Notes under the pieces: generated by a model
What the model saw: only the letters and a program-made list of their open reading frames with translations
What the model was told of the DNA's origin: nothing
Database searches by the model: none
Origin: Candidatus Giovannonibacteria bacterium
GTDB lineage: Bacteria; Patescibacteriota; Minisyncoccia; UBA11713; 2-01-FULL-45-33
Length of the DNA: 64,000 nucleotides
Assembly (NCBI GenBank): GCA_016432405.1
Contig: CP066687.1
Span: 42,456 to 106,455 of the forward strand
Reading direction: 5' to 3'
Shown: in pieces, positions 59,187-63,275 of the stretch
Position numbering within the stretch: the first letter of the stretch is position 1
How the letters are laid out: each line of letters begins with the position of its first letter
Position numbers and translations under genes: made by a program

Positions 59187-61331
59187 TTATTTTCTGCGCG
59201 GCTTCGGCTGAAGCTCCTGCACGGCTTTGATTGAAAGATTTACCCTTCCTTGGTCGTCAATGCCGACGACTTTTACTTTTACTTCGTCCCCCGGCGCGAC
59301 TACGTCCGTGACCTGATTTACCCGAAAAGGCGTGAGCTCGGAGATATGTACCAATCCTTCCTGTTTCGGCCCGATTTCTACCATTGCGCCGAATGGGAAG
59401 ATGCGCGTGACTTTGCCTGTAAACGTTTCTCCGACCTCAAATTCTTTTGTCAGCATTGTGATTTTTTCTTCGGCCGCTTTTAAGCTTTCTTGATTCGGCG
59501 AGGTGATGAAAATCGTGCCGTCCTGCTCAATATCAATCTCCGCGCCGGTTTCCGCCACGATTGATTGGATTATTTTGCCTCCCGGGCCGATGACGTCGCG
59601 GATTTTCTCCGGATTTATATGCATGGTTAAAATCCGCGGAGCGTAAGGTGAAAGTTCGTCGCGGTGTTTGGGAAGTTCCTTGGCGATGACGTCCAAAATC
59701 TGGAGACGCGCCTCGCGCGCCTGCAAAAACGCCTCCCCCATAATGTTTAACGGTATTCCGTCCACTTTCACGTCCATTTGGGCCGCGGTGATTCCACTGC
59801 GTGTCCCGGCAACTTTAAAATCCATATCGCCGTGATGGTCTTCCGGCCCCTGGATATCGGTTAAAATTTTGTAATTATTTTTATCTTGCATCATCAGCCC
59901 CACTGCAATCCCCGAAACCGGCGCTTTTATGGGAACTCCCGCGTCCATCAGCGCCAATGCGCCGGCCGTTACCGAGCCCATTGAGGAGGAACCGTTGGAC
60001 GAAAGCGTCTCGGAGACCACGCGGATGGTGTAAGGAAAAATTTCCGCCGGAGGAATTACGGCCAGTAGCGCTTTTTCCCCCAGAGCTCCGTGGCCGATGT
60101 CGCGCCGAGCAGGGCCCCTCATCGGTTTTATCTCCCCGACCGAGAACGGCGGGAAATTGTAATGGTGCATAAATCTTTTTTTCGTCCGCACTTCCATTCC
60201 TTCAATCAGCTGGACGTCCGACGGCGCGCCCAGGGTTGCCACGGAAAGAATGTGCGTCTCACCCCTGTAAAAAACACCGGAGCCGTGCGTCCTTGGGAGC
60301 ACTCCCGCCCTTGCGAAAAGCGGGCGCAAATCTTTTACCCCCCTGCCGTCGGGCCTTTTTTCTTTTTCTATGATATTTTTATGGACAATGTCGTTAATCG
60401 CATCTTCAAAAAGGGAATCGGCGATATTGCGCGGAGTGTCCGCGAAATTTTCTTCGCATTCTTCCATCCATTGCCTTTTTAATTCGTTCATCGCTTCGTA
60501 GCGGTTTAATTTTTCTTTTACGTAAATTGTCTCTTCCAGCTTCGGCGCGATTTTTTTCTGAAATTCGGCTTTCATGTCGGCAGGCGCCTCGGCCAGCGCA
60601 ATTTCCGCTTTCGCCGCGCCGATCTCTTTTATGATTTTATTCTGGAATTCGCAAAGTTTGTCGTTTTCCGCCGTTGCGAGTTTGAGAGCCTCCATCATTT
60701 CGTCTTCCGAGATTTCTTGCGCGCCGGCTTCAATCATATTTACCCCCACACCAAAGGTTTTGGTGTGGGGGTTTACCTTGCCTCCCACACCGCAAATCAC
60801 CGCGTCTAACTCGGCACCCTCACGCATTTTGTAGCTTGGATTTATCACAAACTCATTTCCTACTTTGCCAATTCTTATTGCGCCAATCGGACCGGCCCAG
60901 GGGATGTTGGAAGTCCCCAGCGCCAGAGAAGTCGCCAAAATCGCAAGCACGTCCGGGTCGTTGTCCTCGTCAATTGAGAGTGTAAGCACAATCACCTGCG
61001 TTTCGTTTCTTGTTTTTTGGTTAAAAAGCGGCCTTATGCTTCGGTCAATCAGGCGCGAAACCAATATTGCTTCGTCTGACGCTCTCCCTTCTCGGCGCAT
61101 GAAACGCGAGCCCAAAATCATCCCCGCGGCGTAAAATTTTTCTTCGTAATCAACCGTCAGCGGGAAAAAATCTATTCCCTCGCGCGCGGTTTTAGTCTGA
61201 ACGGCGGTCGCCAAAACAACCGTGCCGCCGTAAGTGATTAAGCAAGACCCGTTGGCTTGGTGCGCCAAATCGCTAAACTCGGCGGTAAGAGTCCTTCCGC
61301 CGACTTTCGTCGTAAATTTTTTTGATTGCAT
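59187..61331 (-). CDS. pnp: Polyribonucleotide nucleotidyltransferase (PNPase)
   Basis: Two RNase PH domains plus KH and S1 domains. It contains an in-frame palindromic insertion, GKVNPHTKTFGVG. Confidence 0.95.
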   Translation of the reverse strand: MQSKKFTTKVGGRTLTAEFSDLAHQANGSCLITYGGTVVLATAVQTKTAREGIDFFPLTVDYEEKFYAAGMILGSRFMRREGRASDEAILVSRLIDRSIRPLFNQKTRNETQVIVLTLSIDEDNDPDVLAILATSLALGTSNIPWAGPIGAIRIGKVGNEFVINPSYKMREGAELDAVICGVGGKVNPHTKTFGVGVNMIEAGAQEISEDEMMEALKLATAENDKLCEFQNKIIKEIGAAKAEIALAEAPADMKAEFQKKIAPKLEETIYVKEKLNRYEAMNELKRQWMEECEENFADTPRNIADSLFEDAINDIVHKNIIEKEKRPDGRGVKDLRPLFARAGVLPRTHGSGVFYRGETHILSVATLGAPSDVQLIEGMEVRTKKRFMHHYNFPPFSVGEIKPMRGPARRDIGHGALGEKALLAVIPPAEIFPYTIRVVSETLSSNGSSSMGSVTAGALALMDAGVPIKAPVSGIAVGLMMQDKNNYKILTDIQGPEDHHGDMDFKVAGTRSGITAAQMDVKVDGIPLNIMGEAFLQAREARLQILDVIAKELPKHRDELSPYAPRILTMHINPEKIRDVIGPGGKIIQSIVAETGAEIDIEQDGTIFITSPNQESLKAAEEKITMLTKEFEVGETFTGKVTRIFPFGAMVEIGPKQEGLVHISELTPFRVNQVTDVVAPGDEVKVKVVGIDDQGRVNLSIKAVQELQPKPRRK
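60744..60771. repeat. 28-bp palindromic intragenic element, family II, copy in pnp
   Basis: CCCCCACACCAAAGGTTTTGGTGTGGGGG, flanked on both sides by TTTAC. It is in frame and encodes NPHTKTFGVG. Confidence 0.7.
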
Positions 61332-61493
61332 ATTTCTTGGGCTGGCCTCCGGATTTTAGGCCGCGTTTTCGCACGGACTACCTATCCAAAGGCCAACAGT
61401 GTTAATTAATAATAATTAAATACTATTCTTTAGATTTAGCGATGTCAAGCCCGTCCGGAAATCCCGGCCGGCTTTTTTTATTCATTTTCTGCA

Positions 61494-61531
61494 TATACTC
61501 AATTTGTCACGATCGTACGAAAGTGAGTATA
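61494..61531. promoter_or_regulatory. About 38-bp imperfect palindrome centred on CACGATCGTAC, copy B of the shared operator-like motif
   Basis: TATACTCAATTTGTCACGATCGTACGAAAGTGAGTATA. It lies about 160-200 nt upstream of the pnp start. Confidence 0.45.
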
Positions 61532-61559
61532 GCCACCCTTTTGTAATTTATAAGCGGCG

Positions 61560-62087
61560 CTACTTCTTTATTATGTACTTCCCCGGCTCTTCGCCCAAAT
61601 CAATGAATTCGTCGCAGATTTCTTTGAGCTTTCCTGAAGTTGAGCGGCCGAAAGCGATGATTTCAACGCGTCTCCCCTGATTTTTCAAATATTCAACCAA
61701 AGGTATAAGGTCGCCGTCGCCGCAGGCAATAATAATGGTATCCACAATCTCCGCTGTGCGAATGGCGTCCACCGCGAGCCCGACGTCCCAGTCCGCCTTT
61801 TTAGCCCCGCCGAAAAATTCCTGCAAGTCCTTTTCGCGCGTTTCAATCCCCAACTTGATAAGGGCCTCAAAAAAGGGCTTCTCCTCACCCGTTTTTGTGC
61901 GGATGACATATCCGAAGGCGCGGATGAGCTGCCGCCCGCCGATTGCCGTCTGTAGCAGGTTTTTAAAATTCACCCGCCCGCCGAATAAGCTCCGCGCGGA
62001 ATGGTAAAGGTTCTGCGCGTCAATGAAAACCGCGACGCGCTGATTTTTGTGTTTGATGTCCGGCATAAAATTATTTACGTAACCCAA
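61560..62087 (-). CDS. NYN-domain (LabA-like, PIN-related) protein
   Basis: [11 protein letters not shown]...[13 protein letters not shown], a NYN/LabA signature. It is inserted between rpsO and pnp. Confidence 0.65.
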
Positions 62088-62337
62088 GTTTTTTAATAAG
62101 TTTTTCGTACGACGCTTTATCTTTTTTGGAAAGATACTCCAGAAATTTTTTCCTTTTGGAAACCATCTTTAAAAGCCCTCTCCGAGAGTGGTTGTCTTTG
62201 CGGTGCTTTTTTAAGTGTTCGGTGAGTTCGTCAATCCTTTTTGTGAGCAGCGCCGCCTGCACTTCGGCCGAGCCCGTGTCTTTTTCGTGAACGCGGTGCG
62301 CTTCCACTATTTTCTTTTTGTCTTTGGATTTAAGCAC
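62071..62337 (-). CDS. rpsO: 30S ribosomal protein S15
   Basis: [33 protein letters not shown] is canonical S15. The start is set at an in-frame GTG (VLKSKDKKK) to give 89 aa, because the upstream ORF extension is AT-rich and non-homologous. Confidence 0.75.
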
Positions 62338-62402
62338 GATTACGAAATTACTAATAAATACGAATATACGAATAATATCATTATTTATGATAATATCAAA
62401 AT

Positions 62403-63275
62403 ATGGAAAACGTCGCAAAATTAAAGAAGGAGTTTCTTGAATATCTGGAGATAGAAAAAGGGCGGGTGGTGAAGACCGTGGAAAATTACGACAGGTACTT
62501 AAAGCGTTTTTTGGATTTTGCGAAAATCAGCGAGCCCAAAAACATAAGCGAGGATTTAGTGAGAAAATACCGGCTTTATCTCAACCGCGCGGACTTGGAC
62601 AAAAATACGCAGAATTATTATGTTATCGCGCTTAGGATGTTTTTAAAATATTTGTCCAAAAGGAATGTTGATTCGCTGGATGCCGAGAAAGTTGAGCTAG
62701 CGAAACTGCCCCAGCGAGAATTGGATTTATTGGGTTCGGAGGATTTGGAAAGATTATTAAAAGCCCCAGATGGAAACTCCGCCAAATCCTTGAGAGATAA
62801 AGCTGTTTTAGAGATGTTTTTTTCTACGGGGCTTCGCATCTCTGAACTTGCCAATCTTAAAGTAGAGGAAGTTTACCCCCACACCAAAAAGTTTGGTGTG
62901 GGGGAATTCTCCGTCCGCGGAAAGGGAGGGAAAATCAGGGTGGTGTTTTTGTCGGATAGAGCCAAAAGCGCCGTCTTAAATTATTTGGAAAAAAGGGGCG
63001 GCATTGACAATGACAAATTATTTCCGGTGACCTCGCGCTCAATCCAAAGAATGATAAAAAAATACGCGATTAAAGCCGGAATAGTCAAAAAAGTCACTCC
63101 GCATGTTCTGCGCCACGCTTTCGCCACTGACCTTTTGCAAAACGGCGCCGATTTGCGCTCCGTGCAGGCGATGCTCGGCCACGCCAACATTTCAACCACG
63201 CAAATTTACACCCATTTTACGGATAAGCAATTAAAAGAGGTGCACAGGGCGTTTCATGGGAGGAGGAGAAAATGA
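62403..63275 (+). CDS. xerC: Tyrosine recombinase XerC/XerD-like
   Basis: [38 protein letters not shown], the catalytic R-H-R-Y region. It contains an in-frame palindromic insertion, [11 protein letters not shown]. Confidence 0.85.
62876..62904. repeat. 29-bp palindromic intragenic element, family II, copy in xerC
   Basis: CCCCCACACCAAAAAGTTTGGTGTGGGGG, preceded by GTTTAC as in the pnp copy. Confidence 0.7.

Follow-up and report, generated by a model that had tools for sequence, protein, structure and literature searches.

A probable micro-transposon of two abutted terminal inverted repeats in coding sequences of Candidate Phyla Radiation bacteria

[quoted passage not shown] These are, respectively, the functionally and the structurally nearest described counterparts of the element reported here, a palindrome of 27–31 bp (family II) with copies in the pnp, xerC, and fpg genes of a 64,000-nucleotide stretch of a Candidatus Giovannonibacteria genome (contig CP066687.1, positions 42,456–106,455; hereafter the window). 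We classify it as a micro-transposon that consists of terminal inverted repeats (TIRs) only and colonizes coding sequence across the Candidate Phyla Radiation (CPR). Like the RPEs, the element is a palindrome inserted in frame in conserved genes of a bacterium with a reduced genome. RPEs differ in their length of ~100–150 bp, in their restriction to Rickettsia, and in their unrelated sequences, whereas the copies in the Giovannonibacteria host are 29 bp long and the element as a whole is spread over many CPR classes. It also has a demonstrable 4-bp target-site duplication (TSD), and we know of no clear TSD in RPEs.

With MITEs such as Correia/NEMIS, Nezha, RUP, and ERIC, the element shares TIRs, a TSD, the lack of coding capacity, a multitude of dispersed copies, and size variants with common ends, and some MITEs likewise form in-frame gene fusions. 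The 10-bp termini of the element are perfect in every copy (by design of the search), the TSD has a fixed length, and copies are dispersed over three genes within 64 kb and at least 120 other loci in many different genes. Whereas MITEs contain internal sequence and can usually be traced to a parent insertion sequence, the element is approximately two abutted ends and has about half the lower size limit of MITEs.

The pattern CCCCCACACC-N6–12-GGTGTGGGGG has three exact matches in the window, compared with 0.00 in 100 dinucleotide-preserving shuffles, and all three lie within long open reading frames (ORFs). A first-pass annotation of this DNA had reported the palindromes in pnp and xerC, both of which are confirmed, and had overlooked the third copy, in fpg/mutM (Table 1). 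The three copies have the common form CCCCCACACC-N9-GGTGTGGGGG (29 bp), the 9-mer CCCCACACC is confined to their six arms within the window, and no further copy was found there at up to three mismatches. The centre is AAAGGTTTT in the pnp copy, AAAAAGTTT in the xerC copy (CCCCCACACCAAAAAGTTTGGTGTGGGGG, which had been placed correctly), and TATCGGATA in the fpg copy; the inner stem is AAA/TTT in the first two versus TATC/GATA in the third, so that the pairing is kept and the sequence differs. The pnp palindrome had been given as 28 bp; it is 29 bp and begins one base earlier, at 60743. Relative to the palindrome, pnp and xerC use the same reading frame (PHTK-x-FGVG; N-PHTKTFGVG on the − strand in pnp) and fpg uses another (L-PPHLSDRCGG-G on the − strand), and the peptides quoted earlier, GKVNPHTKTFGVG in PNPase and an 11-residue segment in XerC, were read correctly. 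Each copy is predicted to form a hairpin of 13–14 bp (−24 to −26 kcal/mol as RNA; −15 to −17 kcal/mol as single-stranded DNA, z ~ −5), and none qualifies as an intrinsic terminator, given the location inside ORFs and the lack of a T-run. Orthologue alignments identify all three copies as insertions at β-hairpin turns, in agreement with the proposal of lineage-specific in-frame palindromic insertions in conserved genes. Distant orthologues carrying the same segments, which would speak against insertion, were sought and not found: the segment is absent from 58 of 60 PNPases, 118 of 119 XerCs, and 58 of 59 Fpgs. The description of the three host genes as essential is an assumption.

The pnp locus provides alleles with and without the element. 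The PNPase of the window has exactly 11 residues more than PDB 5yjj and 8zaw, and exactly these residues are missing, between GGK and VNM, from all but two (P0001 and P0004) of the 60 closest homologues (58–92% identical). In the AlphaFold model (mean pLDDT 84), the insert is coil between strands 175–182 and 196–207, with pLDDT below 50 at residues 185–193. The filled allele of the window reads GGC AAG G-TAAA-CCCCCACACCAAAACCTTTGGTGTGGGGG-TAAA-T ATG; a second filled allele (L122, also L282) is the same except for the centre ATT, and a third (L123, also L283) has the centre GTC and one arm pair broken by a synonymous GGT>GGC change, so that all three conform to G-TAAA-29 bp-TAAA-T/C. The empty alleles of close relatives read AAA G TAAA T ATG (L286, L303) or G TAAA C ATG (L287, L292, L295, L301), and the remaining ones G TCAA T or G TGAA T. 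Subtraction of the empty from the filled allele leaves exactly the 29-bp element and one extra TAAA, that is, 33 nt or 11 codons. These pairs establish that the flanking repeat is a genuine TSD, as had been surmised. The flanks had been read as TTTAC on both sides; those letters are present, but the duplication is 4 bp (TTTA) beside 29 bp in the family as a whole, and a parse into 28 bp and a 5-bp TTTAC duplication suits the pnp copy alone. The broken arm pair of L123 suggests that the hairpin is under no constraint after insertion. An assembly artefact can be rejected given that the pnp insert is present, with sequence differences, in independent NCBI, ENA, and JGI assemblies.

The distribution of the pnp insert is patchy. 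In none of 500 bootstrap neighbor-joining trees do the three filled alleles form a clade: the PNPase of the window pairs with the empty P0002/P0003 in 497 trees, and the filled P0004 clusters with the empty P0005, P0006, P0007, and P0009 in 447. In 120-nt segments around the insert, the allele of the window is nearest to the other filled alleles (identity of 0.82 and 0.75–0.78, versus 0.68 for the empty L121), and 100–200 nt downstream it is nearest to L121 (0.89–0.92). Given this mosaic, homologous recombination that swaps the filled for the empty state, or the reverse, accounts at least in part for the pattern; several insertions into one TAAA, or precise loss, may contribute, and independent insertion or precise excision as the sole cause is weakened by the mosaic.

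When one genome per species (GTDB) was scanned for the exact pattern, at least 120 loci matched, whereas a rough calculation predicts ~3 by chance. The four bases to the left equal the four bases to the right in 52 of 125 copies (shuffled pairing: mean 9.7, maximum 17). By length, direct-repeat matches number 52 at 4 bases, three at 5, and none at 6, and inverted matches are at background. In the 98 copies that we consider bona fide (AT-rich centre, locus GC content below 56%), the duplication is perfect in 47, compared with 11.4 expected, and a T..A 4-mer flanks 38 of the other 51 on one side or both (background 6.8%). Fourteen different 4-mers are duplicated (TTTA 19 times, TAAA 12, TGAA 4, CAAG 3, TTCA, TTGA, CCTG, and CCGG twice each, and six once), with a consensus of YNNR, mostly TWWA and chiefly TTTA/TAAA. 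The centre is 9 nt in 55 copies, 8 nt in 40, 7 nt in 15, 10 nt in eight, and 11 nt in seven, which gives the element length of 27–31 bp. Symmetry usually extends beyond the 10-bp termini to 13–14 bp, and because most copies with an 8-nt centre (24 of 32) are perfect, loop-free 28-bp palindromes, the symmetry points to DNA-level organization as two abutted 14-bp ends rather than to selection for an RNA hairpin.

The strong single-stranded DNA hairpin would also fit "peel-and-paste" transposition of the IS200/IS605, REP/RAYT, or PATE kind, in which a Y1 HUH transposase would recognize the hairpin and place the element 3′ of a fixed tetranucleotide. The right-hand TTTA would then belong to the element, no duplication would exist, and the tetranucleotide would be TTTA or TTAC, the latter being the target of IS608. 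TTTA or its complement TAAA accounts for 31 of the 47 duplicated 4-mers, both copies of the window that lack a duplication retain TTTA on one side, and a hairpin would bring the ends together and so solve the geometry of a 29-bp substrate. We nevertheless regard this mechanism as unlikely. It predicts one invariant flanking tetranucleotide without true duplication, in conflict with the 14 different duplicated 4-mers: perfect duplications of TGAA/TTCA (6), CAAG (3), CCTG (2), CCGG (2), TTGA (2), CGAG, TCTA, TATT, AATT, TATA, and TTAA are found in unrelated lineages and beside different centres, and a fixed cleavage site borne by the element would not vary with the target. The same duplication of diverse 4-mers on both sides separates the element from IS200/IS605-derived, PATE-like sequences, and the element has no room for guide sequences. 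No Y1 transposase turned up, although no search was aimed at one. The element does resemble REPs and REPINs, which RAYT transposases mobilize, in being a short (20–40 bp), GC-rich, hairpin-forming palindrome with many copies. REPs are extragenic, have a conserved GTAG-type head, and lack flanking target duplications; in contrast, the element has no such head, carries the 4-bp duplication, and is common inside genes (all three copies of the window and 27 of 98 elsewhere).

Insertion into coding sequence is related to reading frame. A 9-nt centre is the only class for which the element and its duplication add a multiple of three (29 + 4 = 33). Among bona fide copies, 21 of 48 that add 33 nt lie inside genes (defined by an open frame of 600 nt or more that extends 90 nt or more to either side of the copy), versus six of 50 of other lengths (odds ratio 5.7, Fisher p = 5.9e-4). 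The arms are free of stop codons in every frame, and each of the three is read in some copies (x-PHTK-x-FGVG-V, PPHQ-x-FWCGG, and TPTPK-x-LVWG). Hosts confirmed by Pfam include PheT, a UvrD-type helicase, a Mur ligase, FolD, TruB, RsmA/KsgA, Lgt, GMP synthase, a P-type ATPase, and DNA polymerase III delta′. The range of hosts bears on a second alternative, according to which each copy is the immobile scar of a full-length insertion sequence that entered with a 4-bp duplication and whose later, imprecise removal spared only its two ends. A scar would account for both the duplication and the abutted ends without movement of a 29-bp substrate, and we know of no mechanism for moving so short a duplex. 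We consider it very unlikely, given that it requires gene-disrupting intermediates in pheT, a murC-like Mur ligase gene, holB (Pol III delta′), guaA, folD, and lgt, which would normally be lethal in a haploid cell. The tight clustering of lengths, the many perfectly symmetric 28-mers that are identical across distant lineages, and the nesting of copies in other small elements also argue against scars, and no full-length element was seen in ~0.9 Mb of element-bearing loci.

Some loci carry several copies or remnants. One Parcubacteria locus (L026, Gr01-1014_33) has at least four within 8 kb, at 392–420, ~601, 3068–3096, and ~4352, and its P-type ATPase contains two, one intact (YPHTKDFGVGV) and the other degraded (LPPHQKFGGGGLP). 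The ORF around position 4312 of L035, which by eye we take to be Pol III delta-like, contains the degraded remnants LSPHSKFECGG, LPPHSCMSVG, and APTPMNGCGG.

Neither the xerC copy nor the fpg copy is a clean insertion. In XerC, the segment is confined to the query and the identical P0121, and the other 118 homologues have N-(L/I)-K-R-(G/D). Where the window reads GTT TAC CCC CAC ACC AAA AAG TTT GGT GTG GGG GAA TTC, three orthologues read ATA AAT CTA AAA CGC GAC GAA TTT, ATA AAC ATA AAA AGA GGG GAA TTT, and GTT AAT TTA AAA CGC GAC GAA TTT. The first-pass reading holds largely for pnp and needs qualifying for xerC, where the segment is lineage-specific but a simple insertion does not describe it: five ancestral codons (N-L/I-K-R-G/D) are replaced by ten, with a net gain of 15 nt. 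The left side alone has TTTA, and on the right the junction lies within a host G-run that overlaps the terminal Gs of the element. In the AlphaFold model of XerC, the insert (157–166) is coil, with pLDDT below 50 at 161–164, directly before strands 168–172 and 178–182. In 58 Fpg homologues, among them the closest orthologue P0242 (89% identical), a turn of three residues (GGE, SGK, or DGR) takes the place of GLPPHLSDRCGGG. The window reads TCC GGT TTA (CCC...GGG) GGC GGG GAT and the empty L160 allele TCC GGA GGC GAA GAT, a net gain of 30 nt, with TTTA on one side only and the opposite junction in a host G-run. Because the xerC and fpg events are confined to the source genome and the pnp insertion is common to three lineages, the pnp insertion is the older one, which makes age-related decay of the duplication at xerC and fpg unlikely. 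We infer either insertion followed quickly by an in-frame deletion or joining of the second end by microhomology.

These two copies are the main ground for a third alternative, copying between existing sites by gene conversion, template switching, or microhomology patching. The xerC and pnp copies are ~2.1 kb apart and have identical 13-bp arms, xerC and fpg lack the right-hand duplication and have lost host nucleotides, both right junctions lie in a host G-run overlapping the terminal Gs of the element, and the pnp region is a recombination mosaic. As a general explanation, site-to-site copying fails for the 47 clean duplications of varied 4-mers and for the exact filled/empty pair at pnp, and we judge it extremely unlikely; as a secondary process during or after transposition, it is compatible with insertion of a mobile element.

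Longer elements share the ends and the duplication. One locus (L092) contains TAAA-CCCCCACACCAATCT...112 bp...-TAAA, with ends and duplication like those of the mini-copies. At least five Saccharibacteria loci contain TTTA-TCCCCACACCTTCCC...~154 nt...GGGAAGGTGTGGGGA-TTTA with 94–97% identity and different flanks, and outer elements in Falkowbacteria have the form TAAA-TCCAAACACCTTC...GAAGGTGTMTGGA-TAAA. These 112–154-bp relatives fall within the size range of MITEs. Mini-copies are nested in longer elements with duplications of their own (TGAA, TATT, TAAA). From the longer and nested members, the family is wider than the search pattern, with termini of roughly YCCMMACACC, and its members insert into each other. 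Within the ~154-nt Saccharibacteria element, beside a family II copy, lies a mini-palindrome CCCTCCCACC-AAAATTT-GGTGGGAGGG (L083, 4403–4429; also L098, L101, L114, and L090), and a variant CCCCAACACC-AATTTT-GGTGTAGGGG with a TAAA duplication occurs in L039 and L096. These C/G-armed variants suggest that one kind of element exists with many terminal sequences.

Several candidates for a parent were rejected. Pairs of YCCNNACACC...GGTGTNNGGR 60–4000 bp apart in the loci examined were only small elements or pairs of separate mini-copies; apparent ends of a 1-kb parent at 5115 and 6181 of L019 are another ~146-nt copy (5112–5262) and a chance match in a peptidase gene (6181). Abutted ends in outside-out orientation, the expected mark of a circle junction, were looked for and not found. 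Single ends (TTTACCCCCACACC) in viral contigs are chance matches, and the two candidates among them, L211/L213 (3,568 bp) and L254 (760 bp), represent unrelated viral genes and a tRNA-like 3′ end. Rfam identified only tRNAs in the window and the longer elements, and the 150-nt elements match no known RNA family.

One Uhrbacteria metagenome-assembled genome (MAG; L037, JACRQE010000002.1) encodes a 661-aa ORF (3819–5804) that matches the NCBIfam model "TIGR-Tas system RNA-guided endonuclease" just below its cut-off (97.8 bits, cut-off 100, E = 8e-28) and, weakly, IS110-type DEDD transposases. The ORF is flanked (3182–3751 and 5853–6364) by ~229-bp repeat units, each with a hairpin TGTCCGCCACCAATCTCGCGGGACG, that may be a guide-RNA array, and the downstream block is bracketed by two family II mini-palindromes. 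No link between this array and palindrome mobility was demonstrated, and a connection between the repeat units and the 112-bp element of L092 was rejected, given that they share only 11–13-nt matches beyond the termini.

Among the 80 loci with listed titles, 50 are from Patescibacteria, in more than 12 named classes, and the hosts listed include Parcubacteria, Saccharibacteria, Falkow-, Uhr-, Nealson-, Wolfe-, Moran-, Doudna-, Kerfeld-, Nomura-, and Giovannonibacteria, Minisyncoccia, and Paceibacterota. Other matches are in MAGs labelled Omnitrophota, Planctomycetota, Deltaproteobacteria, and others. A minority, in high-GC actinobacteria and Pseudomonas, are look-alikes, terminator-type hairpins with GC-rich loops, stems that run into the flanks, and T-runs; the same applies to all 35 matches to the full pattern in viral contigs, which were therefore rejected. 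One look-alike, aaaaaaagg-CCCCCACACC-7 nt-GGTGTGGGGG-cc-ttttt (L125–L159 from IMG/VR, and L041 and L050 from Pseudomonas), adjoins "...gattgaacat" in many Pseudomonas-type phage or prophage contigs and has no relation to the CPR element. Literature searches that started from the sequence, the taxon, or the concept turned up no account of the element, with most papers in subscription journals outside their reach, and this family of very small mobile elements is apparently undescribed.

Taken as a family, the copies are very probably mobile-element insertions with a 4-bp target duplication, and those of the window are probably copies of a non-autonomous DNA transposon that consists of approximately two TIRs and is mobilized in trans with a 4-bp stagger. 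On the specific involvement of a trans-acting DDE-type transposase, we are evenly divided. Transposases of the piggyBac/IS1380 type duplicate 4 bp at a T..A-type target (TTAA for piggyBac) and act on ends of the form CC(C)...(G)GG; the element differs in its preference for TTTA/TAAA, with TTAA once among 47 duplications, and no such transposase was found in the material described below. The unit that moves would comprise the termini CCCCCACACC and GGTGTGGGGG, usually three to four more symmetric bases inward, and 0–3 central bases, and the transposase would be provided in trans by a full-length relative. The target would be cut with a 4-bp stagger, with a preference for YNNR and mostly at TTTA/TAAA, and the 4-bp duplication left by repair of the stagger is directly observed. 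A 29-bp copy with its duplication would then keep the frame and add ~11 residues, and selection would retain copies in tolerant places, here the tips of β-hairpins, where the new residues would form an extra surface loop; frame-preserving copies do persist at positions that the structural models depict as loops. After insertion, a copy would evolve as ordinary coding sequence, as the synonymous arm change of L123 and the changes of centre codons suggest. At xerC and fpg, partial deletion would have removed the duplication and neighbouring host codons, at xerC for example by loss of 18 nt between the terminal GGGG of the element and a host GGGG.

Several points weigh against a transposon of this kind. 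A duplex of 27–31 bp seems too short to loop its ends together, which makes classical cut-and-paste geometry questionable: the ends of a rigid 29-bp duplex are ~95 Å apart by our estimate, yet they are joined to positions 4 bp apart. To reconcile the two distances, the substrate would have to fold back as a hairpin or cruciform, bend strongly, or be joined in steps. Roughly every second copy lacks the perfect duplication, among them the xerC and fpg copies of the window, and neither a transposase nor a full-length element with these ends was found in the window, in the ~0.9 Mb of element-bearing loci, or in two scans of viral contigs. At 27–31 bp with 7–11 central bases, the element is also below the size of described MITEs (PMC10969869). 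The identity of the 10-bp termini was imposed by the search pattern, so that terminal diversity and copy numbers may reach beyond the exact matches, and some matches in MAGs labelled as non-CPR could be binning errors. More tentatively, and with some doubt, we propose that the 27–31-bp unit is itself the substrate of transposition and the smallest DNA transposon known, moving in a fold-back form (hairpin or cruciform) that brings its ends together. It would be served by a transposase common among CPR bacteria and present in some neighbouring groups, and would time and again add surface loops to core enzymes and occasionally remove them.

The window contains other features besides the family II copies. 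The repeat TCCCCCTTAA-n-GTAAGGGGGA followed by TTAAGGGG, which appears to be the Family I of the earlier annotation, has near-identical copies at 497–517 and 50266–50286 and relatives at 50230–50250 and 43491–43515. The copy at 497–517 lies inside fpg, where it encodes ITPLIPLTLRG, with no 4-bp duplication evident at the boundaries tried. This second fpg site (~480–530, residues ~150–165) is a hot spot at which P0243–P0269 have nothing or very different inserts of 10–45 residues, such as NPLNPPYSKGDTKKRNISYNAPLKVRGAEGGY and PLPPLLPKERGKRNTYSLSLRRRGRAAQG, that resemble translations of further palindromes with C/G arms; the distant P0269 (56% identical) shares SITPLIPLTLRG with the Fpg of the window. 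Rfam predicts tRNA genes at 59–129 (+), 967–1038 (−), and 63833–63904 (+), and given that the second of these overlaps the part by which the longest fpg ORF (138–998) extends upstream, the real start of fpg is the ATG at 959. The gene order xerC, rpsO (S15), NYN-domain gene, and pnp around 61560–62418 is conserved in L121, L124, and L161, which often have small toxin–antitoxin-like genes (DUF4258/DUF2283, HicA) between the NYN gene and pnp that the window lacks.

Table 1. Family II copies in the window, their flanking 4-mers, and their host genes
Feature	Coordinates	Strand	Remarks
Family II element, pnp copy	60743..60771	.	29-bp palindrome CCCCCACACCAAAGGTTTTGGTGTGGGGG
Left TSD copy at pnp	60739..60742	.	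TTTA on + strand, TAAA on gene strand
Right TSD copy at pnp	60772..60775	.	TTTA on + strand
Host gene pnp, polynucleotide phosphorylase, 714 aa	59187..61331	−	E = 1e-203 to PDB 5yjj
Family II element, xerC copy	62876..62904	.	13-bp arms of the pnp copy, centre loop AAG; + strand reading
TTTA left of xerC copy (target-like 4-mer)	62872..62875	.	Right side AATT, no matching repeat
Host gene, XerC/XerD-type tyrosine recombinase, 290 aa	62403..63275	+	PDB 4a8e, 1a0p
Family II element, fpg copy	685..713	.	Same 10-bp termini, covarying inner stem TATC-G-GATA
TAAA (TTTA on gene strand) beside fpg copy	714..717	.	Other side CCCG, no matching repeat
Host gene fpg/mutM, formamidopyrimidine-DNA glycosylase, 273 aa from MPELPEVET	138..959	−	PDB 1tdz and others

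For practical purposes, copies of the element inflate apparent divergence and create spurious indels in alignments of CPR marker genes (PNPase, PheT, TruB, KsgA, and others), and they serve as fine-scale presence/absence markers for strain tracking; the minimal ends and 4-bp target could suit engineering once the enzyme is known. If our interpretation is correct, two abutted ends of ~29 bp would lower the known size limit of mobile DNA elements and would raise a concrete question of mechanism: by what route the two ends of so short a duplex come to be attached at target sites 4 bp apart. The element would then be a general source of protein-loop variation in the core genes of CPR bacteria, comparable to the RPEs and far wider in its spread.

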